From contig OZ220741.1 in the NCBI GenBank assembly GCA_965116885.1, positions 3,680,001 through 3,744,000 of the forward strand: a stretch of 64,000 bases of DNA, written 5' to 3'. Every line of letters starts with the position of its first letter. Positions within the stretch are counted from its first letter, which is position 1. Under the pieces are notes generated by a model that was given only the letters and a program-made list of their open reading frames with translations, was not told the origin of the DNA and made no database searches. The DNA comes from Candidatus Latescibacterota bacterium. Lineage in GTDB: Bacteria > Latescibacterota > UBA2968. Of this stretch, positions 20,253 to 41,776 are shown piece after piece. A program made the position numbers and the translations under genes.

Positions 20253-20404
20253 CACCAAGAGTTGCACGAAATCTCGGGCGATTAGATCGGCGTATGATGG
20301 AACGAGTTTCACGACGGATTGACGCATTAGTCCAGCAACCCTATTTAGGGAAACCCCTGAAAGGTCGGCTCAAAGATAAGCGTTCCCTGCGTGTTGGTGA
20401 TTTT
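20210..20404 (+). pseudogene. Truncated RelE/ParE-family toxin
   Basis: YQIVIAPRVARNLGRL...PYLGKPLKGRLKDKRSLRVGDF, then unrelated sequence. The expected YRIIY strand is missing and there is no good start codon. Confidence 0.7.
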
Positions 20405-20514
20405 CTCGTAAAAAACCTAATCCCATGTGCGGCCCCTAAAATTATAGCTACACTGAGGCCAGCAATAGCACCTGAAATGATACTTTCATAGTTATCAATG
20501 ATTATATCATACAT
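20341..20514 (-). pseudogene. 5' fragment of a membrane-anchored protein gene fused to the antisense of the relE remnant
   Basis: Manual translation MYDIIIDNYESIISGAIAGLSVAIILGAAHGIRFFTRK (one TM helix), then reads into relE antisense. 57 aa, below the ORF track cut-off. Confidence 0.4.
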
Positions 20515-20577
20515 GACAAAACGGAGAAATGGGGCAGACAGGATTACCGATTGATCTGAACAAACTTGTATAAAAAT

Positions 20578-20608
20578 AAAAAGAGGTCGATTTATATCGG
20601 CCTTTTTT
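20578..20608 (-). terminator. Bidirectional-looking rho-independent terminator
   Basis: AAAAAGAGGTCGAT-TTAT-ATCGGCCTTTTTT, just downstream (minus strand) of the displaced phyH 3' copy. Confidence 0.7.
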
Positions 20609-20627
20609 CACTGTGTAAACAGACTGC

Positions 20628-20773
20628 TGACTATTCACTACTGATTCCGTGTTCTTCGAGCCAGGCTTTGAGGGGCACGTCTTCGGGCGCGGGGGAGGTG
20701 TAGCCGCGACCACCGGAGTAGCGACGCCCAGGAGTTGTTTTTGGATGGGCGTGCAGCGGTCGAGGTAGTGTTC
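20628..20773 (-). repeat. Direct repeat copy 1: displaced 3' end of the phyH gene at 21592-22437
   Basis: 146 bp matching 21589-21735 with 6 substitutions and a 1-bp deletion (manual alignment). Confidence 0.95.
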
Positions 20774-21140
20774 AGCTTCCAAGTTCAGCAACATTGCGAA
20801 AACGATGGCGTCCTGTCTCAACAACGACAAATGCTTCTTCGAGTTCTGATTCAGAGTACGTTTCTAAAACGCGTTTCAACTCTCTGTGAACTGCAGATAG
20901 ATTTGTGGGATTAAGCCGCAGATATATGACCCCTGAGCCTGCGCGAAGGACAAACACAAGACGGCCAAAATCTCGATCTCGGGTTACAAGAAGCCTGTCA
21001 TCACTACGCGCAATACGCAACAACTCGCTATCGTCAGTTTGTGCATGTCCCGATTCACCTGCAGTCACAACATCATGTCCAAGGTCTTTGAGAAATTGTC
21101 CTGTAATCGCATAGACATCGTGATCGAGAAATAACCTCAT
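20772..21140 (-). CDS. DUF5615 / Mut7-C-like PIN-domain toxin
   Basis: MRLFLDHDV, GHDV, DDSELL, LVTRDRDFG acidic PIN motifs. Confidence 0.85.
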   Translation of the reverse strand: MRLFLDHDVYAITGQFLKDLGHDVVTAGESGHAQTDDSELLRIARSDDRLLVTRDRDFGRLVFVLRAGSGVIYLRLNPTNLSAVHRELKRVLETYSESELEEAFVVVETGRHRFRNVAELGS

Positions 21141-21588: not shown

Positions 21589-21735
21589 TGACTATTCACT
21601 ACTGATCCCGTGTTCTTCAAGCCAGGCTTTGAGGGGCGCGTCTTCGGGTGTGGGGGAGGTGTAGCCGCGACCACCGGAGTAGCTGACGCCGAGGAGTTGT
21701 TTTTGGATGGGCGTGCAGCGGTCGAGGTAGTGTTC
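21589..21735 (-). repeat. Direct repeat copy 2: functional 3' end of phyH
   Basis: 147 bp matching 20628-20773. Confidence 0.95.
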
Positions 21736-22437
21736 TACGCGCATGTCGTCGCGTGGGCGAAGCCAGCGGTAGGAGTAGCCGTAGAAGAGTACGCGGCGGG
21801 GTTCCTTCCAGTAGTTGGTACTGGCGGAGTGCCATAAGCGGCGGTCAAAAAATACGGCTGATCCAGGGGGCACGAGCACCGGGATGGCGTCTTTGTGTAG
21901 CGCGTTGCGATCTTCTCCGGGAAATGTGTTTTGCGTTTGGCTTTTGGGAAGGACGTAGAAATTGCCGCGGCCCGGTTGGGTTGTGTCGGTGAGAAAAAAG
22001 CCGATTTTGAGGGAGATCATGGGACGCGGATTCATGTCAAAATCCTGATTGATGCGGCCGCTGTCTTGATGGAAACCGAGACCGGGACCGTCTTTTTCGA
22101 GTGTTTTGTTCGGTTCTGCAGGGGGTGTCACGGTCATGTGGGTGTGGTAGAGCTGGATGTGCCATCCCAGGATGCCCCACACTTTGGGAAATGTTTTGTG
22201 CCAGTCGAGCAAGGGCAAGAAATGGTCGTCTTTACCTATGAAGTCGTAGTGGTTGATGCGCGCTGTGGCACTTTTGCCCATTCGAGCGCGTTCTTCTTTA
22301 TCCACGCGATCTACTGCGACGACGAGATCGCTGACCATGTCGGGCGACAGGGCATCCGGAACGATGAAATAGCCATCCCGTTTGAATTTGCGCGCTTCTT
22401 CTTCTGTCAGACAATAATCGAGACATTTGGGGTGCAT
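21592..22437 (-). CDS. PhyH-family Fe(II)/2-oxoglutarate dioxygenase
   Basis: FKRDGYFIVPDAL, HQD and distal WHS facial triad, RRVLFYGY. Confidence 0.88.
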   Translation of the reverse strand: MHPKCLDYCLTEEEARKFKRDGYFIVPDALSPDMVSDLVVAVDRVDKEERARMGKSATARINHYDFIGKDDHFLPLLDWHKTFPKVWGILGWHIQLYHTHMTVTPPAEPNKTLEKDGPGLGFHQDSGRINQDFDMNPRPMISLKIGFFLTDTTQPGRGNFYVLPKSQTQNTFPGEDRNALHKDAIPVLVPPGSAVFFDRRLWHSASTNYWKEPRRVLFYGYSYRWLRPRDDMRVEHYLDRCTPIQKQLLGVSYSGGRGYTSPTPEDAPLKAWLEEHGISSE

Positions 22438-23927: not shown

Positions 23928-24611
23928 ATGAGTGTACAAAAAGAAATTTACGCCCTCAAACGCGAACTCGCCGCACGTTATCAACTCGGCGAAGAACACC
24001 ACAATATTTGTGGGCGCAAAATAGGTGTGACGTGTGTTGAAGATGCCGAAGCACTCTTTGACAAAATGCAAATGGCCGATCCCGATAGCATTGAGGTGCA
24101 GGATGAACGCCTGCCGTATTGGGCTACGCTTTGGGATTCTGCGCTTGTTTTGTCCGATGTTCTGCTCGCGGATAATCTGATTGCGTCGGGCGAATCCGTG
24201 CTTGAACTCGGCTGTGGGTTGGGCCTTGTGTCATCTATTGCCTGTCTCAAACGCGCGCGTGTCACTGCTACGGATTACCAGCCCGATGCACTCAAGTTCG
24301 CGCGACTCAACAGTTTGCAAATTGCTGGCGTCGTGCCCAGGACAATGCTCATTGACTGGCGTTCCCCGCCGCAAGAACAACACTATGCCACCTTGTTGGG
24401 CGCAGATCTCGTGTACGAACTGCGCTTTTTCGATCCTCTCATCGCCACATTCGACGCCCTTCTCGCACCGGGAGGGCGCATTTTATTTTCTGAACCCAAT
24501 CGCGTCTTAGGTAGATCTTTTTTTGATCGTCTGCTCAATACGGGCTGGACGTTTTCCACGATAACCGAGCGAGAAGGCGCGACGGTATATGAGATTGTGA
24601 GAAGTGATTAG
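23928..24611 (+). CDS. Family 16 (METTL21-like) SAM-dependent methyltransferase
   Basis: LPYWATLWDSA, VLELGCGLG, DWR, GADLVYE. Confidence 0.85.
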   Translation: MSVQKEIYALKRELAARYQLGEEHHNICGRKIGVTCVEDAEALFDKMQMADPDSIEVQDERLPYWATLWDSALVLSDVLLADNLIASGESVLELGCGLGLVSSIACLKRARVTATDYQPDALKFARLNSLQIAGVVPRTMLIDWRSPPQEQHYATLLGADLVYELRFFDPLIATFDALLAPGGRILFSEPNRVLGRSFFDRLLNTGWTFSTITEREGATVYEIVRSD

Positions 24612-25498
24612 AATATATCCAAATCCGCTGCTTCGATTTCTTTCCGCAATGCTTTCTCTTCTTCCTCATCGAGCGGACGTGTAGGCTTGATGGGGTCGCC
24701 GCACTCGATTCCCTGCCAGCGCAATACGGCGCGTACGCTGCCGTGTCCACTGTATTTTTGACAAATCCGAATCAGTTCATTCACGTCTGCTTGCAATGCG
24801 CGGGCCGTGTCCAAATCGCGCTTGTTCACCGCTTCGTAAATGCCCACAAAATGCGCGGGCATCACGTTGTAAAATGTGCCGATTCCCCCCTGAGCACCTG
24901 CCGCAATGCCCGATAGGGCTACTTCGTCATGTCCGTTAAAAATATGCGGTTTATGCGGCCCATTGAGTACGCGTTCCATTAAGAACAGGTTGAAATTTGT
25001 GAACTTAATGCCCACCACGCCCTCGAGTGCGAGCATCTGGTTGATTTGTTCAAACGAATACTCCTGATGCGTGACCACGGGGATATAATACACAAAGACC
25101 GGCAAATTTGCCGCCGAACTCAGCGCACTGTAATACGCTAGGATGTCTTCAAACCGATATCCCTGGACATAAGGCGGCAAACTCGAAATGCCATCGGCTC
25201 CCGCATCTGCGGCGTGTTTGGCGAGTTCAACGGCATCGCGCTCCGAGGGCGCGCCGACGTGTACTACTACTCGGCCATGTCCTTTTGATGCTTTGACGGC
25301 AATTTCTGTGGCCAACTTGCGCTCGGCCATTGTCATCAAATAGCCTTCGCCCGTGTTGCCTGCCACGTACACGCCGTGTGATCCCTGTTCGTAGATACGC
25401 GCCATGAGTTTTTCATATGCCGAGACGCTAAATGCGCCTGTCCCATCCCTGGGACTGACCAGTGCGGGATACATGCCCTTAAATCCGTCGAGTATCAC
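24608..25498 (-). CDS. DHDPS/N-acetylneuraminate lyase family aldolase
   Basis: GVYVAGNTGE, YYIP, GIKFT Schiff-base Lys, GGIGTFYN. Confidence 0.85.
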   Translation of the reverse strand: MILDGFKGMYPALVSPRDGTGAFSVSAYEKLMARIYEQGSHGVYVAGNTGEGYLMTMAERKLATEIAVKASKGHGRVVVHVGAPSERDAVELAKHAADAGADGISSLPPYVQGYRFEDILAYYSALSSAANLPVFVYYIPVVTHQEYSFEQINQMLALEGVVGIKFTNFNLFLMERVLNGPHKPHIFNGHDEVALSGIAAGAQGGIGTFYNVMPAHFVGIYEAVNKRDLDTARALQADVNELIRICQKYSGHGSVRAVLRWQGIECGDPIKPTRPLDEEEEKALRKEIEAADLDIF

Positions 25499-26502
25499 AG
25501 GGCGCCTCCTGTTTTTTCGTAAAGTGTACGGGATAGTAATTCGATTTCTGTGCGTTCAACCAGTGTCTCTACGAGATGTTGCGGCAAACCCGCTGTGCCG
25601 TGATACAAACCGCTCAGGGTGCCGGCAATGGCTGCAAATGTATCGACATCGCCACCCGTGAGCAGCGCGCGTTCAACTGTGGGGATAAATTCTCCTTCTG
25701 CGCGCAAAAATGCCTCCAAAGCTACGACAATTGTGGCCTGGGCTTCGCTTGGTATGGCGTTTTCTCGCGCAGCTTCGGGCATTTGTACCATGGCCGCCCA
25801 CGCATCTTCCTCGTTCATTGTCAGCAATGTCCGCACCTGTGCGATCAACTCGCCTGTGGATTCGCAAATCGGTCTGGCCGACCACTCGGCTACGTCCAGT
25901 ACCTCATTTCCGTCCAGCGGGCGATGTGTTACCAGATGCCCCACCACATGGGCCATCGCGACCGCAGGTGCAACTGCGCGTGGATCCTGGTGCGTCACAT
26001 GGCTCGCTGCAATAGCATCCTCCAGGATATTTTCACCAGTTGCCCAATTCCACAAGCCCACTGGCGCGATTTTCATGACCGCTCCGTTGGAAGGGTGGTC
26101 TTTCGATGCGGCTTCAGACCAGGGCAGACCCTGATCAAGGCGTTCCAGAGTCTCCTTAAAAGCCCTGCCATACATTTGCAGGAGTCCCTCACGCCACATC
26201 GCCAAAAATCGATTGCTCAGGTCTTCGGGGTCAATCTTTTCACACGCTATAATTGACTCAACCAGGACGAGGGTCTGCTGGGTATCGTCTGTATATTCTC
26301 CCGCTGGTCGGGTCAACACGCCTTCCCGATTGACCCGACCGCGATAGTGGTCTGTCAATCCCTCTACCGCTCTGATCCGATCCCTGTCCCATCCCTCGCA
26401 AAAACAGCCCAGAGTATCGCCTATTGCGCCGCCCAGTAGCGCGCCTACAAACATATCTTCGACCTCGATGTCTTCTATATCGTCGTCCCAGTAATCAGCC
26501 AT
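25495..26502 (-). CDS. ADP-ribosylglycohydrolase family protein
   Basis: GAIGDTLG, YTDDTQ, SNGAVMK, THQDP, GGDVDTFAAIAG. Confidence 0.9.
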   Translation of the reverse strand: MADYWDDDIEDIEVEDMFVGALLGGAIGDTLGCFCEGWDRDRIRAVEGLTDHYRGRVNREGVLTRPAGEYTDDTQQTLVLVESIIACEKIDPEDLSNRFLAMWREGLLQMYGRAFKETLERLDQGLPWSEAASKDHPSNGAVMKIAPVGLWNWATGENILEDAIAASHVTHQDPRAVAPAVAMAHVVGHLVTHRPLDGNEVLDVAEWSARPICESTGELIAQVRTLLTMNEEDAWAAMVQMPEAARENAIPSEAQATIVVALEAFLRAEGEFIPTVERALLTGGDVDTFAAIAGTLSGLYHGTAGLPQHLVETLVERTEIELLSRTLYEKTGGAL

Positions 26503-26546
26503 AATTCAAATCCTCAAGTTTAATCGGTGTAAAAATACAAGGGCCT

Positions 26547-27545
26547 CTACCGCACATCTACGATATTGCGAAATGCCCGAATGTGCTCGGGCGTTGTTCC
26601 GCAACATCCGCCTATCAAGAATCCACCGGCGTCCAACAAGTCTTCGACGTGTTGGGCCATGTCTTCTGGTCCTTGCGAATACGACGCCTGTTTGGTGACT
26701 TTGTCCAGGGTGGGTAAGCCCGCATTGGGATAGGCCATCAAACGCTTGTTTTCAATGCCGCGATCCACAAGCGCTTTTTGCATCTGCACTGTGCCCTCAA
26801 TTGCATAGGGCATGCCCGTGTGATCTGTATTGCGCGTTTCTGCGCCGCAGTTCAGTCCCAGGAGTTGCACGTCGCCGAGTAGATTATCGCCGTTTGAAAA
26901 TTCGCCACTTGCCAAAATGTCCAGTAGGTCGCTGGGTGAAACCCCCCAGTCAGTGCGGTAAATCAATTCACCCGTTTTGCGATCCACTGTGAATTTATAC
27001 GTCATATTCACGGCGATGGGTAAGCCCGTCTGTCGTGCAATGTCAACGGCGATTGCCGCTTCTTTTGCGGAAAACTGCGTTTCTATGACAAAAAAATCGA
27101 CGCCGCCTTTGACCATGGCAGAGATCACGCGCTCGTGGGCCGATCGCACATCTGCATTGGGAATGCCAAAAACCGTGTCGCCGGCATCGGCTTCGATAGC
27201 ACCGGGGGAGGGACCGATAGAACCGCCCACATAAACATCCTTCCCGCTTTCTTCAACGGCTTGCCGCGCGTGTTGGACGGCTAATTCTGTCAAGCGCTCG
27301 GCATCATCTTCATCGGCGTCGGCCATCTCGAGATGCAGGGGGGATACCACAAATGTGTTCGTGCCGATGGCATTTGCACCCGCATCGATATACGCGCGAT
27401 GTACTGCCACCACCTCGGCGGGATGCGATAGATTGGCGATGGAACTGTTTGCCAGATTCACCCCATGTTCAAATAATTGAGACCCAAACCCACCGTCATA
27501 CACCATTGGCTGATCATCTACGAGGCGTTCTGCAAAAGATTTCAT
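26547..27545 (-). CDS. Stand-alone homocysteine S-methyltransferase domain (MetH N-terminal type)
   Basis: DGGFGSQL, HRAYIDAGA...TNTF, GLNCG, YPNAGLP, GGCCGTTPEHI Zn ligands. Confidence 0.9.
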   Translation of the reverse strand: MKSFAERLVDDQPMVYDGGFGSQLFEHGVNLANSSIANLSHPAEVVAVHRAYIDAGANAIGTNTFVVSPLHLEMADADEDDAERLTELAVQHARQAVEESGKDVYVGGSIGPSPGAIEADAGDTVFGIPNADVRSAHERVISAMVKGGVDFFVIETQFSAKEAAIAVDIARQTGLPIAVNMTYKFTVDRKTGELIYRTDWGVSPSDLLDILASGEFSNGDNLLGDVQLLGLNCGAETRNTDHTGMPYAIEGTVQMQKALVDRGIENKRLMAYPNAGLPTLDKVTKQASYSQGPEDMAQHVEDLLDAGGFLIGGCCGTTPEHIRAFRNIVDVR

Positions 27546-29470
27546 ACCGTCATCCTCTTAAACTGACATCCTTCGACAAATACGTCAAAAAAATCTGGCT
27601 TTGTCTCCAGTTCTACATGTTCAATCCGTTTCACAAGGCGTTCTAACCCGTCGCGTCGTTTCCGCGAGAGCAATACTTCTCTCGCGCCCAATATCGCGGC
27701 ATTTCCCACCTTTTCAATGCGCTCTTGTGGCACGGGTGCGAGAAAACCGATGTCAATCGCATTTTGCACATTCACGTAATTGGCAAAACCACCGGATAGA
27801 TAAAGCCGATGGATCTGATCGGGGGCAATGCCAAATTCGCGCATGACGAGTAACTGCCCACAATAATTCGCGGCCTTGGCCTGAGCCAGATTGCTCGCGT
27901 CTTCACGCGACAGCGCAATGCCGTGTTCGGGCACCACGATCATTTCATATTGCTTGCGGTCGGCAAATACGCCCTTTTCTGTCATCAAATCATGCCGCCG
28001 AAGCTCGGCCAACAAGTCAATAAGACCAGAGCCGCACAATCCCTGGGGTGCGCCGCCGCCAATTACGCGGTAATTGAACTGCCCATTTTCCCACGCCATC
28101 GATTCAATTGCCCCATCTTGACCGGGCATGCCACAGGCGATACCGCCGCCTTCAAATGCCGGTCCCGCCGGACAGGATGCCGCCACCAACCTGTCTCGAT
28201 TGCCCACCACGACTTCGGTATTGGTGCCCACATCGACGAGCATGAATATCTCGTCTTGATCACCCATTTCTACGGCGAGCATATCCGCTGCGACATCGCC
28301 GCCCACATGGCTCGCAATAAGGGGCATGCCATATACCCGCGCTTTGGGATTTGCGCGAATGCCCAACCGCCTGCTGCTCTCATAGAGGGCGGTTGTTTTT
28401 CGCTCTCCGGTCAGATATTCGTGTTCTATTTGAGATTTATAGGGTTTTTGCCCGATACTCTGCACATCGAGCCTGAAAAACATATCCCGCATGGTGGCAT
28501 TGCCAGCGACGACAATTTCGTAAATTTCTTGTCGCTCAAAATCCAATTTTTCACATAGCACGAGAATTTCGTGGTTGATCGCATTTACCAGTGCTTTCCA
28601 CAGCTCATTTGGATATTCGCCATCATAGGAAATGCGATACATGATGTCGCTGCCGCCAAAGCGCTGGGGATTTTCATAAGATGTAATCGCAATACTCTCG
28701 CCAGATTCCAGATCTATGAGATCCATCACAACTGTCGTGGTGCCCACATCAATTGCCAGTCCGTAGATGTGGCCACGGAACCGATCGATGTCTTCTCCGT
28801 CGTAAAATATTCGGTCCCCCTTGCGCGTTACCACGGGATCGAGGTCGATTTCTTTTTGCTGGCTCAAGGTCAAAATTTGAGGCGCGCGGCGCAGGGGCGC
28901 AAACTCAACTTCCGCATCCAGATCTACGACTTCGGCCTGACAGGCCAATCGGTAATTGTCTTTTAAGAAGGTTTCAGCCTCTGTTTTGGGACACAGGGCG
29001 TCTTCGCCTTTTGTGATCTCTACCACGCATTCATGGCATATTCCCGACCGGAAACACGACGTTGGAACCTGAACGGCCAGGTCGTCGGCATAATCAAATA
29101 TCGTTTTCCGCGCTTCGAGTTGCTGCACCTTGCCCATGTGTGTAATTGTGCCCGTTCCCTTTTTTCGACGACGGTTTTTTTGTTTTTTGAGTGTGGTCTT
29201 CATCTCACGATAGGCATCTGGCTCTGTTTCCCAGGCGGTGCGATAGTCGAGGTTATCGTTGCTGGCACATTGAAAAAGCGCCCGATTGGGCGCTGGTTTA
29301 CGCTGGAATTTACATCCGAATTTGGCTGTGCATTCGTTGTCCTTGTTTTTGTAGGGACAGCGCATCTGCGCCTGTTCGTCGGCATGCTGGACAATATCTG
29401 AAAAAATTTCAGACATGCGATCCAGCCGCTTTTGATAGGCTTCTCGATCTATTTTTTCACGCTCACTCAT
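27542..29470 (-). CDS. ATP-dependent corrinoid reductive activator (RamA/RACo, ASKHA/DUF4445) with 2Fe-2S domain and extra N-terminal Cys4 region
   Basis: SCFRSGICHEC...RLACQ, AIDVGTTTV, DVGTNTEV, SCPAGPAFEG, GLCGSG, LSGGFA, GNAA. Confidence 0.92.
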   Translation of the reverse strand: MSEREKIDREAYQKRLDRMSEIFSDIVQHADEQAQMRCPYKNKDNECTAKFGCKFQRKPAPNRALFQCASNDNLDYRTAWETEPDAYREMKTTLKKQKNRRRKKGTGTITHMGKVQQLEARKTIFDYADDLAVQVPTSCFRSGICHECVVEITKGEDALCPKTEAETFLKDNYRLACQAEVVDLDAEVEFAPLRRAPQILTLSQQKEIDLDPVVTRKGDRIFYDGEDIDRFRGHIYGLAIDVGTTTVVMDLIDLESGESIAITSYENPQRFGGSDIMYRISYDGEYPNELWKALVNAINHEILVLCEKLDFERQEIYEIVVAGNATMRDMFFRLDVQSIGQKPYKSQIEHEYLTGERKTTALYESSRRLGIRANPKARVYGMPLIASHVGGDVAADMLAVEMGDQDEIFMLVDVGTNTEVVVGNRDRLVAASCPAGPAFEGGGIACGMPGQDGAIESMAWENGQFNYRVIGGGAPQGLCGSGLIDLLAELRRHDLMTEKGVFADRKQYEMIVVPEHGIALSREDASNLAQAKAANYCGQLLVMREFGIAPDQIHRLYLSGGFANYVNVQNAIDIGFLAPVPQERIEKVGNAAILGAREVLLSRKRRDGLERLVKRIEHVELETKPDFFDVFVEGCQFKRMTV

Positions 29471-30224
29471 TCTCCTCCTCCCACTCCTTCAACAATTGTA
29501 CAGCCAGTTCCACGCAGTCCAGGGCGTTTTCGCCGTATCCATCCGCACCCATGTCGTCGGCAAATTCCTGTGTCACGGGGGCACCGCCTACCATGATTTT
29601 TACGTCGTCTCGCAAATCTTCGTCGATAAATGCCTCAATTGTCTTGCCCATATTCGGCATTGTCGTGGTCAACAGTGCCGACATGCCGAGCAAATTGGCT
29701 TCGTGTTCTTCGACGGCATCCATAAATTCGTCTTCGGATGTATCTACGCCGAGGTCGTGGACGACAAACCCGGCGCCGCGCAACATCATGATACACAAAT
29801 TTTTGCCAATATCGTGCAAGTCGCCTTTCACCGTACCCATAATGACCGTGCCTACCGGCTCGACGCCCGAGGCTGACAGGATGGGTTCAATATGCGCCAT
29901 CCCCGCTTTCATTGCCCGAGCACACGCGAGGACTTCGGGTACAAAAATAAAATTCTCTCGAAATTTAATCCCCACAATGCCCATGCCGGCGATCAATCCA
30001 TCGTCCATAATTTCCAGCGCGCCCACGCCTGCATTTAGGGCTTCACGCGTCAATTGATCGACATCGTGATGCGCGCCGTCGATCAATGCGGCGGCTATCG
30101 CCTGCATTTCGGGACTCGCGTTTGCGAACAGGTCGATATTCCGCTGAATTTCATCGGGACGTTCTAAAAATTCTTCTATTTCCTCTATGATAAATTCATT
30201 TTGAATATCGGATAATTCAGCCAT
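29463..30224 (-). CDS. Stand-alone corrinoid (B12-binding) protein
   Basis: Cap domain GMGIVG...FVPEVL, GDLHDIGKNL (DxHxxG), MSALLTTTM, MVGGAPV. Confidence 0.95.
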   Translation of the reverse strand: MAELSDIQNEFIIEEIEEFLERPDEIQRNIDLFANASPEMQAIAAALIDGAHHDVDQLTREALNAGVGALEIMDDGLIAGMGIVGIKFRENFIFVPEVLACARAMKAGMAHIEPILSASGVEPVGTVIMGTVKGDLHDIGKNLCIMMLRGAGFVVHDLGVDTSEDEFMDAVEEHEANLLGMSALLTTTMPNMGKTIEAFIDEDLRDDVKIMVGGAPVTQEFADDMGADGYGENALDCVELAVQLLKEWEEENE

Positions 30225-31269
30225 GAATGCTCACTGCCTCCGCATGCCAATCCACGACTGCTTTTGGGATTTCTTTCAGGTTTTCGATTGATGTTTGCAA
30301 GGGAATCGCACATTCAGGCCCCACCAGATGTACTCCTGCATTCAGGTTTTTATACACTTCTTCTTTTACGGTTTCCGGCTCTTTTGAAAATAGCGTTTCC
30401 GGATTGTTGATATTGCCGACCAGCGAGATTCGCTCTTTCATGATATCAATAGATTCATTTGGATCGTTTTTGGAGTCGTAGTGAAATGCCGCCATGCCCG
30501 TTTGCGCGATGTATTCCATACGATCAACGGTGCGCCCGCAAATATGCAAAATTAGCGGAATGGGTATGCGGTCGGCAAACTCGATGTGCAATTCGCGCAA
30601 ATACCGGTCGTAATAATCGCCGCTGACCAGATCTCCCGTTGCGTGATCGGGCAGGGTCAAGGCGTCGGCGCCTGCTTCAATTTGCGCGACACCGAATTCG
30701 ACGGTTACTTCTTTTAATTTGTCCAGAATTTGCCGCGTGTGATCCGGGTCGTCTAATGATAGGAGCAGAAAATCCTCTACGCCAAAGCAGTGATATGCCA
30801 GGGACCAGGGTCCCATTGTTTTGCCGATAATCGCCACTTCATCTCCGTATTCTTTTCGCAATATGCCAATCGCGTCCAGCACGCATTTTGTATCGGGATG
30901 GGTCAATAAGTTTGACGGGATCTCGATATCATCGACCTTGTGCCAGATCGGTTCTTTCATTTTTACTGTGGGCCAGTTGTCTTTTTGCTCCCATTGAATT
31001 TTGCACCCGAGTGCGGACGATTCTTGAATAATTGTAAATACGGGCATGATCGTGTCAAAACCGAGTTCGGTATAACCCGTTGCCGCCAGACGCGCCATGA
31101 GTTCTGGCTCTCGATTCGCCTGCGGAAATGGCGCATCGACGAGATCCATCAATTCTACGGTTGCAACCGAAGTCGGGTTACAGGTCGGTGTGCGATCCAC
31201 AGGTGCCCGATTGAGTGCGGCCAATACGCGGTCGCGCGGTTTCATTGGTTTTATTGTCTGGTTGTGCAT
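30217..31269 (-). CDS. MtaA/CmuA-family methyltransferase (UroD fold, Zn-binding)
   Basis: PRDRVLAAL, GPWSLA, QIEAGAD, LHICG (HxC), GNIN, GPECAIP. ATG 31269 has an AGGAG RBS. Confidence 0.88.
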   Translation of the reverse strand: MHNQTIKPMKPRDRVLAALNRAPVDRTPTCNPTSVATVELMDLVDAPFPQANREPELMARLAATGYTELGFDTIMPVFTIIQESSALGCKIQWEQKDNWPTVKMKEPIWHKVDDIEIPSNLLTHPDTKCVLDAIGILRKEYGDEVAIIGKTMGPWSLAYHCFGVEDFLLLSLDDPDHTRQILDKLKEVTVEFGVAQIEAGADALTLPDHATGDLVSGDYYDRYLRELHIEFADRIPIPLILHICGRTVDRMEYIAQTGMAAFHYDSKNDPNESIDIMKERISLVGNINNPETLFSKEPETVKEEVYKNLNAGVHLVGPECAIPLQTSIENLKEIPKAVVDWHAEAVSIHG

Positions 31270-31285
31270 ATTGGGACTCCTGTTC

Positions 31286-31915
31286 CTAATTTTGCGCGCT
31301 CGGGGCTGCGAGCACGCCCCGGCTGGCGGCCTGTTCCAATTCTCGCATGACGGATCGCACATTGGGGGCGCGTACGAGGAGAACGCCTATGAGGGGATCG
31401 TGTGTCATGCCGCAATCAAAGCGCACCTGGTCTTCTTCCACTTGTTCCAATTCGCCCAGTTTTGCAAGCCCACCGGCCACCAATCGAATACGCCGGTCTG
31501 CGTCTTTTTCATCTCTGTCAGCCGTGATTTTGTACGCGCCATTAGATTGGGGCGTTGCCGAAATGTGCAATCCCGATTTTTTGTCCAGGATGGTCAACGG
31601 ACGCATAGATACGTCGTCATCCATGCCGAGTTTGCACGCTTCCAGGAATAGCCGCTTCACAGAGAGCAGGTGTGTGGCGCCACACGGAAAGCGCAGCAAT
31701 CCCTCACCTGTGTCTTCCATCCCTCCCAGGACCCGCATCGCATGGTTCACGGAGTCAATACGCACTTGCGCCCCGTCTATCTGGCTATATGTGTGAACGC
31801 GAAAAGTCGTGCCCTGTGCGTTTTCTTGACGGTATAGCCCTATTGTGATGTCGTGAAAATGGACATCCATTGGCACCAATTCTATTCGCCGACCGATATC
31901 TAATATCTGTCCCAT
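31286..31915 (-). CDS. Hypothetical protein with duplicated RFxCGxTH motif
   Basis: 209 aa ORF with RBS, lying directly upstream of and co-oriented with the methyltransferase gene. Confidence 0.8.
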   Translation of the reverse strand: MGQILDIGRRIELVPMDVHFHDITIGLYRQENAQGTTFRVHTYSQIDGAQVRIDSVNHAMRVLGGMEDTGEGLLRFPCGATHLLSVKRLFLEACKLGMDDDVSMRPLTILDKKSGLHISATPQSNGAYKITADRDEKDADRRIRLVAGGLAKLGELEQVEEDQVRFDCGMTHDPLIGVLLVRAPNVRSVMRELEQAASRGVLAAPSAQN

Positions 31916-31929
31916 GAGAATCCTTCCTC

Positions 31930-32793
31930 TTACCTTTTAAGCACATATCGACACACTGCTTTGGCAAAGCCATCGTTTTCAATGTGGTCGGTTTGTAGAA
32001 TATTTTCCCCGGCCACTGCGCGATGGGTTGCTGCATCTGCATTGTGCATCAATACACCGGTTCCGGCTGCGCGCAACATGGGGAGATCATTATTGCCATC
32101 GCCCACCGCCATCACTTCATCGAGGCTGCTGCCAATATGGTTGGCAATCGCTGTGAGTGCCGCGCCTTTGTTCACATCCGGGTGCATGATTTCGATGCGA
32201 CCCGCCACGGCCCATGCCATGTAAATTTGATCGCCAAATATATTTTTTAATTCTTCAACAGTCTCATCGGCATGCCCGGGTTTGGGCAAGAGCATTATTT
32301 TGGGTGGCGCGGCCAATTCTTTCGCGCGTATTTGCTGAGCGAGACCGGCATCGACTTCATAGACCATATTGGTCATTGTGGCTACCGCGCGGCTCATTTT
32401 TGTCATGCGGTCGGTGATATAAACTTCGCAGGGGCCTTCGCTATTCATGTCACAGCGGCAATATACAAAATTCATGAGCCGGTCATCGGCATATTGGATC
32501 AGCGATAAGAATATTTCATCGGGCAAACGCTGTTCGTGCATGAGCTGGCGTGTGCCATTCGTTTTGGGAGCAAAAACCATTGCGCCATTATAACATCCGG
32601 CATAGAGCGCGTCAGCCACGCTGGGATTGCGTACAAACGGGATTTGATTGCGTTCGAAATTGCGCCCACTCATAGACGCTACAGCTACGCCGCGATTCAA
32701 CAATTCGCAAATTGCCGCCATCGAAGCATCCGATGGGGTGTTGTTGTGATTTAAGATCGTTCCATCCAGGTCAAAAGCTACGAGTTTGACCAC
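31930..32793 (-). CDS. Cof-type HAD-IIB hydrolase
   Basis: AFDLDGT, SGR, VNKGAAL, GDGNNDLPML. GTG 32793 has an AGGAG RBS. Confidence 0.88.
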   Translation of the reverse strand: MVKLVAFDLDGTILNHNNTPSDASMAAICELLNRGVAVASMSGRNFERNQIPFVRNPSVADALYAGCYNGAMVFAPKTNGTRQLMHEQRLPDEIFLSLIQYADDRLMNFVYCRCDMNSEGPCEVYITDRMTKMSRAVATMTNMVYEVDAGLAQQIRAKELAAPPKIMLLPKPGHADETVEELKNIFGDQIYMAWAVAGRIEIMHPDVNKGAALTAIANHIGSSLDEVMAVGDGNNDLPMLRAAGTGVLMHNADAATHRAVAGENILQTDHIENDGFAKAVCRYVLKR

Positions 32794-32818
32794 GCGGGTT
32801 CTCCTCATTGGGGTGATT

Positions 32819-33856
32819 TTAATCAACCAAAGGCAACCGAACAGTTCCGCCTCGTTCTGTTGATCGGTGAACTGCCTCGGTGAATTCCATATATTTCATG
32901 CCTTCGTAAAAACTGGTATCGCCCTGAGGCCCACCTTTGATGGCATTGATAAAATCGGCTTCCACAGTCCATTCGGTAGCTTCATTTTCAGGAATGGGAA
33001 TTTGTTGTGGCCGCCTGTCGCCTGTTTTTGCGCCGAGGATTTGCGTTCCCATGTCGTAGATCAATGTGCCTTTGCTGCCATAAGCTTCAACGACGGATTT
33101 TCCACCAAATTGCGCGACGCCCGAAAATAGAAATGCCGCACGCGCGCCATTTTCCATTTTGCCTATGATATGCGCCATATCAGGTGTTTCAACCGGTCCA
33201 GTGCCAGACCCATCGGGTAGTGGTCGCTCTTTTGTAAAAATTTCAGTTTCAGCCGTTATGGTTGACATATAGCCAAATACGCGCGCCACGCGCTCGACGG
33301 TAATGCCCATTCCCAGGATATTCAAGCCCGAATATCGGCGCATTTGCCGCCAGTGCAATGGCTCTTCAGTATCCCAATAGCGCCCGCCCAGGTCGCGGAC
33401 ATAGACGTGGAAAATATCACCCAGATACCCTTCATCTATGAGCCGACGCAAGAAACGCCCGCCTTTCCAGGGGGGGGCTGGACAAATTTGGGTTACGAGA
33501 TTGGATTCTCGACTTCTGGCATACATCAATCGGGCTTCGCGCAAGTTCATCGCCATGCGCGCCTGTACAAAGGTGTGTTTGCCCGCGTCTAAGGACGCGA
33601 GGACAAATTCACAGTGTTTGTACGGCCAGGTGCCGATCATTACCGCGTCGATGTCGTCCCGGTGCAACAGGGCCTGTGGGTCGGTCAGGGCTTCGGCTGA
33701 TAAGCCTTGCTCGGCTATGACCTTTTCACCGCTTTCTATGCTGCGGTTGCATATTGCCACGACTTCGGCATCGTCAATTTTTGCCAATCCCGGAAAATGT
33801 CGGCTCCGAAAAATACCACCCGCACCAATAATGCCAATGCGAATTTTATCTGCCAT
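32819..33856 (-). CDS. Gfo/Idh/MocA family oxidoreductase (paralog 1)
   Basis: IRIGIIGAGG, DIDAVMIGTWP, AGKHTFVQARMA. Confidence 0.9.
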   Translation of the reverse strand: MADKIRIGIIGAGGIFRSRHFPGLAKIDDAEVVAICNRSIESGEKVIAEQGLSAEALTDPQALLHRDDIDAVMIGTWPYKHCEFVLASLDAGKHTFVQARMAMNLREARLMYARSRESNLVTQICPAPPWKGGRFLRRLIDEGYLGDIFHVYVRDLGGRYWDTEEPLHWRQMRRYSGLNILGMGITVERVARVFGYMSTITAETEIFTKERPLPDGSGTGPVETPDMAHIIGKMENGARAAFLFSGVAQFGGKSVVEAYGSKGTLIYDMGTQILGAKTGDRRPQQIPIPENEATEWTVEADFINAIKGGPQGDTSFYEGMKYMEFTEAVHRSTERGGTVRLPLVD

Positions 33857-33955
33857 TTTTTACCTCGCTGTGTTGTCGTTGTTCTTCTCAATATAGAAAC
33901 TGCAGTGCGAATGTATCACAGTTTTTGCCGATTAGCAAATGAATCGGTCACGGCC

Positions 33956-34819
33956 TCAGGCTGTATCGAACTTCCCTGAGTTCTCTATATATCTTTCATA
34001 GGGAACAAGGTTGACGCCACTCCCCCTGTGGATAAAGATCGAACTCTCGCTATATTCGCCATGGCGAAAGATGGGCTCGAATCCATAGGATCCGACTTCG
34101 GCCTGGAGCCGTCTCCAATCCCGATAACACCGCTTTGGAATGTAGGTCCTGCCATTCACAACAATTGTGTCCTCGCACGCTTCGATCCGCTCCCGTTCGG
34201 ACGGGTATTTTTCGAGCGGTTCGTAGTAGTAATCTGTTGACGGATCGTAAAGACAGTCGTTGTCATAGATGTCATAGGTTTGGCCAGTTGATCTGTCGAT
34301 GACTTTCATGTCCGGAGTATGTCGGGAGGACTCGTAAACCGAGGAACTCACGAGATAGTAGCCCTCAGGCTTCAGTCGCGCCTTGACGCTTTCGAAGACA
34401 GATCTGCGCTCTTCTACAAATACGATGTGATTGATGCAGTAGCTGTCGACGATCAAATCGAACTGGTTTCCACTGTGCGGGATCTGGGTTACGTCCATCA
34501 CCTCATACTGAATGGACAAACCTCGAAGGGTAGCTATTTCCCGGGCCGTGTGGATCGCTTCAGGTATCACGTCGTAACCGGTGACCTGGTAACCCCGCTC
34601 GGCGAGAAATAACGCGCCTGGCCCCACACCGGTGCCGAGTTCGAGAGCCGTTGGATTCGGTGTCTCAAACCGGAGCCTCGGCAAGGCCGCTTCGAGAAAG
34701 TTGCGAGATGAAAAGTCGTGGAAGTCCGTGCCTCCATACGTCCTTTTTGCCCAATTCTCCAGACTCATCCGCGTCATGATTTCGTATCGCCGAATATTTT
34801 CACGGAAGTAGTATCTCAT
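33956..34819 (-). CDS. Class I SAM-dependent methyltransferase
   Basis: ALELGTGVG, GYDV, FDLIVDSYCINHI, LKPEG. Confidence 0.82.
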   Translation of the reverse strand: MRYYFRENIRRYEIMTRMSLENWAKRTYGGTDFHDFSSRNFLEAALPRLRFETPNPTALELGTGVGPGALFLAERGYQVTGYDVIPEAIHTAREIATLRGLSIQYEVMDVTQIPHSGNQFDLIVDSYCINHIVFVEERRSVFESVKARLKPEGYYLVSSSVYESSRHTPDMKVIDRSTGQTYDIYDNDCLYDPSTDYYYEPLEKYPSERERIEACEDTIVVNGRTYIPKRCYRDWRRLQAEVGSYGFEPIFRHGEYSESSIFIHRGSGVNLVPYERYIENSGKFDTA

Positions 34820-36130
34820 TTAATCATTCCTGTTTTCGCTTTTCGCCAAACTGGCACAGACCAGTTCTTTATCATTTCGGGCGAACACATGTTTATAGGC
34901 AAACGCAGGATGCGCCCACGTGACACCCCCTCTGCGGTTCAACTGGTCGCGCGTCGGTTCGATCAGTTTCGCGCGGCTGATGATATTCAGCCCGTCCGGC
35001 GAAAGCGTTGTAATCAGGAGTTCGCCGCGCTCATTGAACATCCAGACCTTGTCACCGTTTTTGATAAAATGGATGTTGCTCCAGCGCGCTTTCGGAACCG
35101 CGGTGAGGTCTTCCCAAATCCGATCGCCGTTGCGGGCATCGAGACAGCGGAGTTCCCCATAGCTATCCACACCGTAAATGTAATCGCCGAGTCGGATCGG
35201 GGTTGACATCGTGGAATGGAGCGCGTCTGTGTTCCGCTCATTTTTTCCCTTACGGTGCCAACCGAATTGCATCATCGGCTTATCTGGATTCAGTTTCAGC
35301 AGCAGCGAGCCTTCAAAGAAATCGGTGATAAACAATTCATTTTGATAAAAAACGGGACTTGCGATCCCGATCTCCATGCGAGTCGGTGGAAACGGATGGC
35401 GCCAATGTGTGCTGCCTGTCTGCGGGTTGAGCCCAGCGATATTTCTACCTGTCCAACAGACGAGCACCCGCTCGTCACCCTGTGTAATCACAATTGGAGC
35501 TGAGTAAGATGCGTTGTCTTCAAGGGCTTTCCATTTTTCGGCTCCGGTTTCGCGATCAAAAGCGACAATGCACGCTCCGGGCGTGCCGCCGATTTGTACG
35601 ATGAGGTGTGAACCCTCGACAATCGGCGCGCTCGCAATCCCCCAGGTTGGCATCTCAATATTGTATTCGGTGTTGAGGTCTTTTTTCCACTTCAACGTGC
35701 CGGTTGCAGCATCAAAGCAGTGGAGATGCCCCATCGCCCCCAGGGCGTAAGCGAGTCCGTCATGTATGATAACATTGGCTCGAGGCCCGGCGGTATAGTC
35801 AATGCGGTATTCACACTCGTAGGTGAAGGACCAAATCGATTCCCCTGTTTCCCAGTCGAAACAGTGAACGCGTTCGACCTGTTTCGGTTTCGCGAGACGG
35901 TCAGTAATGTAAACGCGCCCGTCAGCGACGCTCGGGCCGCTATAGCCGCTGCCGATTGGCACTCGCCAACGGATCGGGATCTCCGGTCCGTCAAATGCCT
36001 CCAATATCCCGGTTTCGCTCCAAACACCGTCCCGGTGCGGTCCCCGCCACTGCGGCCATTCATCGGCCAAAACTGAAAATATGGGAAAAAGCACAGCGAG
36101 CAGTATTAGTTTCAATAGGATTCGGTTCAT
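34820..36130 (-). CDS. Secreted PQQ-like beta-propeller protein
   Basis: Signal peptide, WPQWRGP, repeated D..TG...W propeller motifs, WAHPA. Confidence 0.85.
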   Translation of the reverse strand: MNRILLKLILLAVLFPIFSVLADEWPQWRGPHRDGVWSETGILEAFDGPEIPIRWRVPIGSGYSGPSVADGRVYITDRLAKPKQVERVHCFDWETGESIWSFTYECEYRIDYTAGPRANVIIHDGLAYALGAMGHLHCFDAATGTLKWKKDLNTEYNIEMPTWGIASAPIVEGSHLIVQIGGTPGACIVAFDRETGAEKWKALEDNASYSAPIVITQGDERVLVCWTGRNIAGLNPQTGSTHWRHPFPPTRMEIGIASPVFYQNELFITDFFEGSLLLKLNPDKPMMQFGWHRKGKNERNTDALHSTMSTPIRLGDYIYGVDSYGELRCLDARNGDRIWEDLTAVPKARWSNIHFIKNGDKVWMFNERGELLITTLSPDGLNIISRAKLIEPTRDQLNRRGGVTWAHPAFAYKHVFARNDKELVCASLAKSENRND

Positions 36131-36132
36131 GG

Positions 36133-37485
36133 TTAATCATGTCCTTTTTTAAAACGCAAGTTTTTGACCCGGTTTCCAGTCAGCCTGAACCCTGTAACTT
36201 GTCCCGTATCGTCTCGCGTAAAATAAACTTCTGGAAAAAACCACGCATCTCCGACGAAATGATCATCGTTACAGGTTAGCGATATGTCGTCATGGCGTCT
36301 GTGTTGCGCCACAAGCCGGTTCCCTCGCACACCAATGGTATAGGTGGTATCGAGTTCTTCTGTGTAATAAGCGCCTTCGTATTCTGACAACTGCTCAGGT
36401 GATAGGGGGGCGGTCTCGGTGCGTTCAGGGGTTTGCGTATCCGGCTGGGGTGCTTCGGGCGCGAGAACATCCGCGAGATAGAGATCAGCGACCTTTTTTG
36501 CCAGATTAAGCGGGTTAAAGGTGTCCAGATTACACAATATGACAATGCCAAATTTTTGATCCGGAAAACGTATGAGATGGCTGCGAAATCCCCGCCAGGA
36601 TCCGCCGTGCCCGACTGTTTTCTGTGCTCTGTACTCGCCAGTGTCCAATCCAAAGGCGTAGCTGATCTGTTCTCCATTATTGAGAACGCCCCGCTGATGC
36701 ATCTGCTCAATCACTGCCTGTCCGCCTATTCGTGCATCGTCAAAGTTCAGAATCCACTTTGACAGATCTTCTACTGTTGAATAGAGCGAACTCGAACCGA
36801 GAGCGGTTAAGTTGTTCACGGCATTCTTGAACCCATTATCTTTCACGGACAAATAGGAATACGCCCGGTTTTTTACAATCATCTCGTGGTCATCGTGAAA
36901 GTGGGTGCTGGTCATGGCGAGGGGCTTAAAGATGTTGGCGTCCGTCCATTCGCGAAATGAATCTCCCGTTATTTTTTCAACGATTTCTGCCAGCAGATTA
37001 TACCCCGTATTTGAGTATAAAAACGCTGTTCCTGGCTCGAAATTGAGTTCTCTCTGGCGCCTTACCATTTTCAAAATATGCTTAAACGAAATCACGTCAT
37101 CCATCTGTCCGCCAGCGATGACAAGTGCCTGTACCCAATCCCGCAATCCACTCGTGTGATGCACCAGATGTCGAATCGTTATTTTTGTTCCAAAATCCGG
37201 AACATCGGGCAAGTGCATCCGAATATCGTCATCCAGCGAGAGTTTCCCTTCGTGCAACAACGTGGCGATGGCAAAGCCCGCAAATTGCTTGGAGACCGAA
37301 GCAATGTCGAAGATGGTTGTCGGCGCAATCGGGATGTCGTATTCCAGATTCGCCATACCGTATCCGCGTTTGTAGATAATTTCACTGTCTTTGATAACCG
37401 ATAGAGCCGCGCCAGGGGAATCTGGCTTGTCCCATTCCGCGAACACTTGATCAACTTTAGCCTCAAGTGACTCGTTATTTGGCAT
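36133..37485 (-). CDS. Serine hydrolase (beta-lactamase class C / D-aminopeptidase-like)
   Basis: IASVSKQF (SxxK), HHTSGL, YSN, HGG. Confidence 0.88.
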   Translation of the reverse strand: MPNNESLEAKVDQVFAEWDKPDSPGAALSVIKDSEIIYKRGYGMANLEYDIPIAPTTIFDIASVSKQFAGFAIATLLHEGKLSLDDDIRMHLPDVPDFGTKITIRHLVHHTSGLRDWVQALVIAGGQMDDVISFKHILKMVRRQRELNFEPGTAFLYSNTGYNLLAEIVEKITGDSFREWTDANIFKPLAMTSTHFHDDHEMIVKNRAYSYLSVKDNGFKNAVNNLTALGSSSLYSTVEDLSKWILNFDDARIGGQAVIEQMHQRGVLNNGEQISYAFGLDTGEYRAQKTVGHGGSWRGFRSHLIRFPDQKFGIVILCNLDTFNPLNLAKKVADLYLADVLAPEAPQPDTQTPERTETAPLSPEQLSEYEGAYYTEELDTTYTIGVRGNRLVAQHRRHDDISLTCNDDHFVGDAWFFPEVYFTRDDTGQVTGFRLTGNRVKNLRFKKGHD

Positions 37486-37638
37486 TGGTTACCTTCTCTC
37501 GAAGAATTTCTCGCAAAGCCACCCATCAGAAATGCTTTAACGGTTCTCCTGTTCCTGAACCGCGAATGCGGTTGGGTGAAGGCCAAGCTACCGTGTGGCG
37601 TGTTGCTTCAACGGAATGTTAAGAGAGAGACCTGGATT

Positions 37639-38679: not shown

Positions 38680-38689
38680 AAACTCAGTC

Positions 38690-38920: not shown

Positions 38921-38935
38921 TTTTACCACTCCAGA

Positions 38936-39669: not shown

Positions 39670-39685
39670 ATTGTATGCCCTTTGT

Positions 39686-39874: not shown

Positions 39875-39913
39875 TTTTTATCTCACCTAAAAGGACTTTC
39901 ACTTCTTATCTAT

Positions 39914-40705: not shown

Positions 40706-40713
40706 GCGGCCTC

Positions 40714-41763: not shown

Positions 41764-41776
41764 TACAGCCTCCATT

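Follow-up and report, generated by a model that had tools for sequence, protein, structure and literature searches.

The stretch analysed here, 64,000 nt of contig OZ220741.1 from a Candidatus Latescibacterota bacterium (hereafter the window), carries five same-direction open reading frames (ORFs) on its minus strand between positions 26547 and 31915. In reading order they encode a 209-residue protein of no known family (unk209), an MtaA/CmuA-like methyltransferase, a stand-alone corrinoid protein, a RACo/RamA-type activase and a stand-alone homocysteine S-methyltransferase (Table 1). An earlier interpretation made from the letters of the DNA (the sequence-only reading) had proposed that these genes form a new corrinoid methyl relay, which would carry a methyl group from an environmental donor to homocysteine independently of folate and S-adenosylmethionine (SAM). 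The gene content supports a corrinoid relay ending on homocysteine with reactivation of the RACo/RamA type instead of a SAM domain; folate independence, as detailed below, is not established.

Table 1. Positions of the features of the window that are discussed in the text
Feature	Position	Strand	Assignment or remark
unk209, 209 aa, no known family	31286-31915	-	presumed partner of the MtaA-like enzyme
MtaA/CmuA-family UroD-fold Zn corrinoid methyltransferase, 350 aa	30217-31269	-	URO-D, TIGR01463
Stand-alone corrinoid (cobalamin-binding) protein, 253 aa, predicted methyl carrier	29463-30224	-	B12-binding_2 + B12-binding
RACo/RamA-type ATP-dependent reductive activase of corrinoid proteins, 642 aa	27542-29470	-	Fer2 + Raco_middle + RACo_C_ter
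N-terminal extension of the activase, residues 1-100	29170-29470		four cysteines
Stand-alone Zn homocysteine S-methyltransferase, 332 aa, presumed methyl exit to methionine	26547-27545	-	PF02574
HAD-IIB (Cof-type) phosphatase	31930-32826	-	Pfam, NCBIfam; directly upstream of unk209
GFO/IDH/MocA oxidoreductase	32819-33856	-	Pfam, NCBIfam; upstream of the HAD-IIB gene
Class I SAM methyltransferase	33956-34819		
PQQ_2 beta-propeller and beta-lactamase-family (PF00144 type) proteins	34820-37485		upstream of unk209
Eight consecutive called ORFs	37639-43341		no Pfam match at E <= 1e-8
PhyH dioxygenase genes	21592-22437; 62413-63219		
Likely toxin-antitoxin/addiction genes	19538-21140; 46600-47188		nucleotidyltransferase (Polbeta/NTP_transf_2), DUF5615, HI1420-downstream-type antidote protein
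Ogt-type O6-methylguanine DNA methyltransferase	47210-47767		
DUF6785/DUF6784, DUF3604 and xylose-isomerase-like TIM barrel genes	48096-53138		strong G-over-C skew, 0.21-0.27

The operon and its encoded proteins

The last four genes overlap by 8 bp (30217-30224), 8 bp (29463-29470) and 4 bp (27542-27545), in agreement with the 4-8 bp first reported for them, and these start/stop overlaps fit co-translation of the four. For the MtaA-like gene the longest ORF spans 30217-31362 (381 aa); because an AGGAG precedes the ATG at 31269 and homologues begin there, this ATG is most likely the true start, which would give a product of 350 aa and a 16-nt gap after unk209. The ATG of unk209 is preceded by a Shine-Dalgarno-like AGGAAGGA and lies 14 nt from the stop of the HAD-IIB gene. 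A scan of positions 24000-38000 returned 16 promoter-like sites against 14.9 expected from shuffles and 29 terminator-like sites against 16.2 expected, with none marking the operon ends, and neither a SAM nor a cobalamin riboswitch turned up when the window and seven related loci were searched against Rfam at gathering thresholds.

The MtaA-like enzyme matches the Pfam URO-D model (E 4.8e-65) and passes both TIGR01463, the MtaA/CmuA family model (257.2 bits vs cut-off 235.4), and PRK06252 (266.1 vs 244), and it scores below the MtaA and MtbA equivalog cut-offs (NF040654, NF041608; 241.5 vs 400 for MtaA, 203.1 vs 600 for MtbA). Its best match in the PDB is 4ay7, a methylcobalamin:coenzyme M (CoM) methyltransferase (E 3.8e-50), in which the LHICG segment bearing H242-I-C244 is identical and the Cys of PGCGI aligns with C320. 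These three residues, which we take to be the zinc ligands of an H-x-C ... C motif, are kept in 79/79, 79/79 and 78/79 sequences, respectively. With a mean column identity of 87% over 28 sequences labelled with several phyla, this is the most conserved protein of the set. It is encoded by the one UroD-fold gene of the window; among the seven loci scanned whole a second such gene occurs only in the Opitutales-labelled L039, where a divergent MtaA/CmuA-like gene (14557-15813, minus strand; 418 aa, below the family cut-offs) comes directly after the activase gene, with DUF5069 and amidohydrolase genes adjoining it.

The corrinoid protein joins a B12-binding_2 cap (PF02607) to a Rossmann-type B12-binding domain (PF02310). 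Among NCBIfam families it scores highest against MtgC-type and methyltransferase cognate corrinoid proteins without reaching any of their cut-offs, TIGR02370 being missed narrowly (191.3 vs 215.3), and the D135-x-H137-x-x-G140 motif (GDLHDIGK) is found together with the segments MSALL and VGGA in 64/64 sequences. The activase has Fer2 ([2Fe-2S] ferredoxin), Raco_middle and RACo_C_ter (ASKHA) domains that all exceed their Pfam cut-offs, lies below the NCBIfam cut-offs for AcsV (311.5 vs 800 bits) and RamA (127 vs 500 bits), and keeps its Fer2 cysteines in 62/62 sequences. It begins with an extension of about 100 aa carrying C38, C47, C53 and C68. Of 62 aligned homologues, 47 retain these cysteines, and the remaining 15 are tblastn matches that do not cover the region; this four-Cys extension could provide a further metal or Fe-S site N-terminal to the [2Fe-2S] domain. 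The activase gene calls are shorter in L024 (541 aa) and L039 (556 aa).

The homocysteine enzyme is a homologue of the N-terminal module of MetH. It matches PF02574 (S-methyl_trans) with an E-value of 5.1e-52 (177.9 bits vs a cut-off of 22), scores below every equivalog cut-off (YitJ, BHMT, MmuM and MetH), and finds its best PDB match in a Thermotoga MetH fragment (1q7m, E 4.2e-24). The Cys ... Cys-Cys zinc triad (C233 in 44/44 sequences, C314 and C315 in 43/44 each) and D17-G-G (43-44 of 44) are strongly conserved. A single-polypeptide MetH is not what the window encodes: the domains lie on separate proteins, and TIGR02082 scores are 104.6-131.5 vs a cut-off of 1010.85. Identity to the window proteins in more distant loci is about 63-70% for the activase and about 55-63% for the homocysteine enzyme. 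The domains and the HxC...C, DxHxxG and C...CC motifs named by the sequence-only reading thus agree with the Pfam and NCBIfam matches and with the alignments.

No Pfam or NCBIfam family was found for unk209, and 27 members of its family compared with Pfam at E-values of up to 10 gave scattered single matches only, DUF1638 not being among them. A word-indexed search returned 980 homologous proteins at E <= 0.001 from 1434 candidates, and the best 120 of these 980 are 205-260 aa long and 54-96% identical over 98-100% of the query. A profile search of 1.84 billion representatives gave 272 matches at E <= 0.001 (199 at 1e-10 and 83 at 1e-30), nearly all of about 210 aa or fragments, and a scan of 185,579 species genomes located relatives in 378 of them (378 of 423 matched stretches encode one). 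Two longer proteins, P0121 (509 aa) and P0205 (345 aa, with a URO-D fragment), were not counted as fusions because they resemble spurious extension or frameshifted read-through in high-GC DNA.

The CGxxH repeat that had been noticed in unk209 is a true internal tandem duplication: hhalign relates the two halves over 55 columns (probability 95.3%, E 2e-8) and pairs F-P-C-G-x-x-H of one with F-x-C-G-x-x-H of the other, so that the protein consists of tandem copies of an alpha/beta unit, each with an F-x-C-G-x-x-H motif. C78, H82, C168 and H172 are each present in 81/81 sequences, the C-terminal tail R199-G-x-L-x-A-P-S-x-Q208 is mostly kept in 81/81, and the N-terminal tail is also invariant; the mean column identity of the protein is 58%. 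Distant members (24-34% identity) have a different tail, and 2 of the 18 aligned sequences of the distant set, which includes that of the window, are without the first Cys/His pair and the second Cys. An AlphaFold2 model has a confident core (predicted local distance difference test, pLDDT, 81.2; predicted TM-score, pTM, 0.80), with residues 1-20 and 199-209 below 50. Since the tails are invariant yet predicted to be disordered, the model suggests that they may dock onto a partner. Foldseek gave 0 matches to the model in the PDB at E <= 0.001; the top-ranking ones above that limit, to shell proteins with tandem BMC domains (E 0.028, TM 0.22) and to chains of the RNA polymerase subunit L/Rpb11 type, were considered as fold relatives and dropped as not significant. 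Look-ups of unk209 and a homologue (P0063) in the ESM Atlas produced no usable match, and in the open full-text literature, subscription journals being outside its coverage, we found no paper on this cluster or on the 209-aa family.

Gene content of related loci

To define related loci we took the best 80 of the 378 unk209-encoding stretches, all from metagenome-assembled genomes, some of them truncated where a contig or the 10-kb flank ends; a gene was counted as present where a tblastn match to the window protein covered at least half of the query. By record label, which can be imprecise, 35 of the loci belong to Latescibacterota/Latescibacteria, 33 to Poribacteria, 4 to Gemmatimonadota/Gemmatimonadetes and 1 to Opitutales, and 7 are unclassified. 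Nearest to the window are Latescibacterota-labelled chromosomes, with unk209 90-98% identical in L001-L012 and the same twelve-gene order in L001. The MtaA-like gene follows unk209 in 78 loci, the two without it (L059 and L074) coming from the same genome. Of the other genes, that for the corrinoid protein occurs in 63 loci, that for the activase in 61 and that for the homocysteine enzyme in 43; the complete set of five falls within the examined flanks in 43/80. In every locus that has a corrinoid gene (63/63) the MtaA-like gene comes immediately before it on the same strand, no more than about 1 kb away. Conservation of the cluster far exceeds what chance would give.

The adjacency of unk209 and the MtaA-like gene is tighter than that of unk209 with the corrinoid or activase genes, and the pair persists in 15 loci without the rest of the set; because of this we presume that unk209 is a partner of the MtaA-like enzyme, in which it would perhaps serve as a metal-binding specificity or activation subunit, or as the carrier of a thiol or selenol product. 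A complex prediction for the two proteins, both supplied as alignments (ipSAE 0.02 and 0.02, mark 0.32), counts neither for nor against binding.

Sorted by content, 30 loci have the five genes with no pterin-binding methyltransferase or methylenetetrahydrofolate reductase (MTHFR) found in the examined flanks, 13 add the pterin methyltransferase to the five genes (and 12 of these 13 MTHFR as well), and in 16 the MtaA-like, corrinoid and activase genes go with MTHFR, 9 of these having the pterin gene too. The 15 loci mentioned above contain just unk209 and the MtaA-like gene, 4 hold incomplete sets and 2 hold unk209 alone. The check proposed by the sequence-only reading, whether the five-gene set is conserved without a pterin gene, comes out in the affirmative within the examined flanks of 30 of the 43 complete loci; the other 13 have a pterin methyltransferase. 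Among the 30, the gene order is that of the window in 18, and in the other 12 it runs homocysteine methyltransferase (HcyMT), PF13769, unk209, MtaA-like, corrinoid, activase. The PF13769 ('Virulence_fact') protein, of about 90 aa (for example at 15748-16026 in L046), adjoins the homocysteine or pterin methyltransferase gene in 34/80 loci and is not in the window. Selfish-looking genes interrupt the operon in some relatives: a DNA methylase (N6_N4_Mtase) stands between unk209 and the MtaA-like gene in L013 (10518-11876) and L016 (10524-11639), and an HNH endonuclease between the MtaA-like and corrinoid genes in L030 (12221-12631). Similar operon gaps of about 1 kb are seen in L015, L037, L051, L077 and L078.

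In Pfam scans of seven whole loci a pterin-binding protein comes after the activase in L024, L046 and L030, and in L030 the same neighbourhood includes an MTHFR fused to an MTHFR C-terminal domain; also detected were the small PF13769 protein, an Ldh_2 dehydrogenase and a divergent upstream GntR/FCD regulator. The nearest NCBIfam model to the pterin protein is the methyltetrahydrofolate:corrinoid/iron-sulfur protein methyltransferase (202-212 bits vs a cut-off of 259). Over the 80 loci, tblastn found the pterin methyltransferase in 22, MTHFR in 28, the PF13769 protein in 34, the GntR regulator in 28 and a PhyH dioxygenase in 14, and the same queries, including the locus-type PhyH, had no match in the window. 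Within the window, which we represented by 68 non-overlapping ORFs of at least 90 aa picked by a simple script, there was no match to Pterin_bind, MTHFR, Met_synt_B12, MttB, MtaB or MetE. The window is thus without genes for pterin-binding, SAM-reactivation and MttB/MtaB proteins, as had been claimed, the pterin-binding type also by tblastn with the pterin methyltransferase and MTHFR proteins of related loci, and the O2-dependent dioxygenases that had been read in it are the two PhyH genes.

A search with the pterin methyltransferase of L060 gave 3339 homologues at E <= 1e-20. The best 120 of these 3339 are 65-100% identical; 7 of the 120 appear to share a record with unk209 homologues and none with a window-type or HcyMT-first locus, a negative that is weak since a divergent orthologue would be unlisted. 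Because 29/80 loci carry folate-linked genes, it is doubtful that the system as such is independent of folate, and this independence is not established for the route that had been proposed.

Direction and source of the methyl group

On balance, and with moderate confidence, we favour the view that the five genes encode a cobalamin methyl hub, namely a split, RACo-reactivated methionine-synthase module that would share its corrinoid protein with a second methyltransferase. The corrinoid protein would hold the methyl group on cobalt, and the activase would return inactive Co(II) to Co(I) with ATP and an electron from its own [2Fe-2S] domain, standing in for the SAM-dependent reactivation domain of MetH. 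The homocysteine enzyme would transfer the methyl of methyl-Co(III) to homocysteine, yielding methionine, such that these three proteins together would constitute a split MetH module. The MtaA-like enzyme, with unk209 as partner, would most likely load the corrinoid from a non-folate donor.

We infer an entry role for the MtaA-like enzyme, and we consider it more probable than an exit role, because its bacterial UroD-fold analogues are entry enzymes and because the pterin-free operons show two independent gene orders. Among the bacterial systems consulted, the UroD fold supplies the entry enzyme in O-demethylases, CmuA, CdmB, MecC/E and the proposed Mlp systems, and it does so in every characterised one that pairs it with a corrinoid protein, an activase and a folate methyltransferase (PMC13222342, PMC10418091). 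A self-contained operon built twice, in two orders and 30 loci, fits a combination of entry enzyme, carrier, activase and exit enzyme. As donor we would rank a methylated sulfur or selenium compound (methylmercaptopropionate, dimethylsulfide or methanethiol) first, since the thiol-type zinc site is conserved, a methyl halide second and an O-methyl compound third. The divergent GntR/FCD regulator (28/80 loci; best NCBIfam match NanR, sub-threshold) suggests that a small carboxylate governs expression, in the manner of catabolic operons, and an FCD-type regulator would fit a carboxylate donor such as methylmercaptopropionate; kinship with CmuA and the MTHFR neighbour fit a methyl halide, and the sugar-metabolism neighbourhood fits an O-methyl donor. 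A more specific proposal, which we regard as tentative and rather doubtful, is that the MtaA-like enzyme and unk209 form a new two-subunit donor:corrinoid methyltransferase, in which unk209 would be the metal-binding specificity or activation subunit, and which would allow the lineage of the window to make methionine directly from homocysteine and an abundant marine or sponge-derived methyl compound, without folate or SAM, in the presence of oxygen.

Several observations weigh against an entry role and against a folate-free hub. MtaA and MtbA of methanogens, the closest characterised relatives of the MtaA-like enzyme, act at the exit and transfer the methyl group to a thiol, and 15/80 loci hold unk209 and the MtaA-like gene with no corrinoid protein nearby. 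MTHFR and/or a methyltetrahydrofolate (methyl-THF):corrinoid methyltransferase stand beside the core genes in 29/80 loci, where passage from methyl-THF to methionine needs no MtaA-like enzyme, which could equally be a second exit. The examined flanks of the 30 pterin-free loci reach 3.8-6.2 kb downstream (30 bp in L026), and the absence of a pterin-binding methyltransferase, metH, metE and metF covers at most the 64 kb of the window. Finally, gene content, motifs and cluster conservation are observed, and what each protein does, which way the methyl group moves at the MtaA-like enzyme, what donates it and what unk209 contributes are all predictions from sequence.

These points bear most directly on the possibility that the MtaA-like enzyme is an exit. 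Methyl-THF would then load the corrinoid through a pterin-binding methyltransferase, encoded in the operons of relatives and elsewhere in the organism of the window, and the methyl group would pass either to homocysteine or, via the MtaA-like enzyme and unk209, to another thiol or selenol, in the service of detoxification or of the synthesis of S-methyl compounds. The kinship with methylcobamide:CoM methyltransferases, the conserved thiol-activating zinc motif and the folate-linked neighbours of the 29 loci speak for it, as does an MtaA-like bacterial enzyme that methylates selenide and sulfide from methylcobalamin in vitro, although the authors of that work take demethylation as the physiological direction (PMC10418091). 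However, the 30 loci keep the five genes without such an entry enzyme in the examined flanks, in two independent orders, and Pfam domain scans of the window proteins gave no sign of a CoM-type acceptor pathway, and we consider this exit role unlikely.

An ordinary split methionine synthase with its methyl-THF methyltransferase encoded elsewhere, to which the MtaA-like enzyme and unk209 would be accessories (in cofactor handling or regulation) or altogether unrelated, appears improbable. Split MetH with a RamA-like activase is established, and an accessory protein, DUF1638, likewise travels with the activase there (PMC5764234); the occurrence of unk209 and the MtaA-like gene away from a corrinoid gene in 15/80 loci also agrees with such a role. 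Against this, the MtaA-like enzyme keeps all its catalytic residues, scores above the MtaA/CmuA family threshold, shows the strongest conservation within the set (87% vs 58% for unk209), and is encoded directly before the corrinoid gene on the same strand in 63/63 loci. A reverse relay, in which the PF02574 enzyme would move a methyl group from methionine or another S-methyl donor to the corrinoid and the MtaA-like enzyme would pass it to an acceptor, is very improbable: methyl exchange between corrinoids and thioethers can in principle run either way, but in relatives the PF02574 gene lies beside the MTHFR and methyl-THF methyltransferase genes, as expected of a methionine synthase, and to our knowledge the characterised PF02574 enzymes all methylate homocysteine. 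In favour of such a relay, MtgD has been proposed to be bidirectional (PMC12478193).

Described systems, neighbouring genes and biological meaning

MtgBCDE of marine Proteobacteria (PNAS 2025; PMC12478193) represents the arrangement in which a split methionine synthase has a corrinoid protein that a substrate-specific methyltransferase can load as well; the split MetH with a RamA-like activase was described in 2018 (PMC5764234). In Ruegeria, MtgC (corrinoid) and MtgD (pterin) are required for making methionine as well as for growing on glycine betaine, which is demethylated by the MttB-family MtgB, the resulting methyl-THF being oxidised by MetF2 (PMC12478193); in Phaeobacter, genetics has assigned methionine formation to separate PF02574, pterin-binding and corrinoid proteins together with a RamA-like protein and DUF1638 (PMC5764234). 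The window cluster resembles these systems of Ruegeria pomeroyi and Phaeobacter inhibens in encoding its corrinoid and PF02574 proteins separately and in having a RamA/RACo-like activase instead of the SAM domain (PMC12478193, PMC5764234), in the predicted use of one corrinoid protein for both methionine synthesis and a substrate-specific methyltransferase, in the pterin-binding methyltransferase and MTHFR (metF2-like) of its relatives, and in the oxic marine settings of the hosts. It differs in that its substrate enzyme is of the UroD-fold MtaA/CmuA family rather than the MttB family (pfam06253) and is accompanied by unk209, in that its operon has no pterin subunit and its host phyla are others, and in that its homocysteine enzyme scores higher against the YitJ and Thermotoga MetH types than against the BHMT-like model. 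Neither the MttB family (pfam06253) nor DUF1638 was found in the 68 window ORFs or in the scanned ORFs of 18 loci (7 whole, 11 in part). Because the operons of many relatives also hold a methyl-THF:corrinoid methyltransferase and MTHFR, the hub would generally be tied to the folate one-carbon pool, as in MtgBCDE, with the lineage of the window keeping only the five genes together. The principle of the relay, which the sequence-only reading had offered as new, is hence known from MtgBCDE and split MetH as they are described in PMC12478193 and PMC5764234; what is new is an MtaA-like rather than an MttB-like extra enzyme, the conserved unk209 partner family, and hosts labelled Latescibacterota, Poribacteria and Gemmatimonadota.

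With the methanogen soluble CoM methyltransferases MtaA and MtbA the window enzyme shares the best match to 4ay7, the identical LHICG, the aligned second Cys and a score above the TIGR01463 cut-off. Unlike them, it stays below the equivalog cut-offs, belongs to a bacterium in whose window there is no sign of CoM metabolism, and has a homocysteine enzyme as its partner methyltransferase, with unk209 in addition. MtsA and MtpA are further soluble CoM methyltransferases of methanogens, and MtsA-type enzymes use dimethylsulfide. The Type 1 mlp clusters of anaerobes likewise combine an MtaA-like UroD-fold enzyme, a corrinoid protein and an activase of the Ram/RACE type, with no folate methyltransferase, and have been proposed to demethylate methyl-sulfur or methyl-selenium compounds and recycle the methyl groups into methionine (PMC10418091). 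However, as set out in that paper they have at least two paralogues (Mlp2 and Mlp3) and occur in obligate anaerobes only, whereas the window has a single UroD-fold gene, an explicit homocysteine methyltransferase and unk209, amid genes for oxygen-dependent dioxygenases. CmuAB of aerobes and CdmBCA of an acetogen similarly pass a methyl group from a UroD-superfamily entry enzyme to a corrinoid carrier and then to a folate methyltransferase, and aerobic chloromethane systems have an MTHFR companion, as do 28/80 related loci here (PMC13222342). CmuA belongs to the family named by TIGR01463 but, unlike the window enzyme, is fused to its corrinoid domain; CdmB has no zinc site and falls in the O-demethylase branch; and neither system, as presented in the source, includes a homocysteine methyltransferase or unk209 (PMC13222342).

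The GFO/IDH/MocA and HAD-IIB genes lie upstream of unk209 in 29/80 loci, 28 of them with the full core genes and the exception (L029) being cut off after the MtaA-like gene; a GntR gene stands between this pair and unk209 in at least one locus (L024). The two genes may be co-transcribed with the operon, and nothing ties them to the methyl relay. Farther upstream, the class I SAM methyltransferase has as its best NCBIfam match CpaM, a corrinoid protein-associated methyltransferase (45.1 vs a cut-off of 180 bits), and a homologue only in L001 among the 80 loci. The propeller/beta-lactamase pairing recurs upstream of unk209, with a PF13354-type enzyme and in one to two copies, in the Poribacteria-labelled L031, L041 and L059, which of the set hold unk209 and the MtaA-like gene only and whose propellers are 25-27% identical to that of the window; this pairing could be a recurrent association or chance. 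The run of eight ORFs without a Pfam match may be an island, because G+C is lower there (0.44-0.47 at 36-40 kb vs about 0.51 elsewhere).

For Poribacteria, Latescibacterota and Gemmatimonadota we found no description of a corrinoid methyltransferase system in the literature covered. If the MtaA-like enzyme loads the corrinoid from an environmental donor, the cluster would represent a second, independent marine route from methyl scavenging to methionine, the first being that from glycine betaine via MtgB. A conserved protein family that has neither a Pfam entry nor a structural relative would then also gain a function, and a wider need for cobalamin in these communities would be implied.

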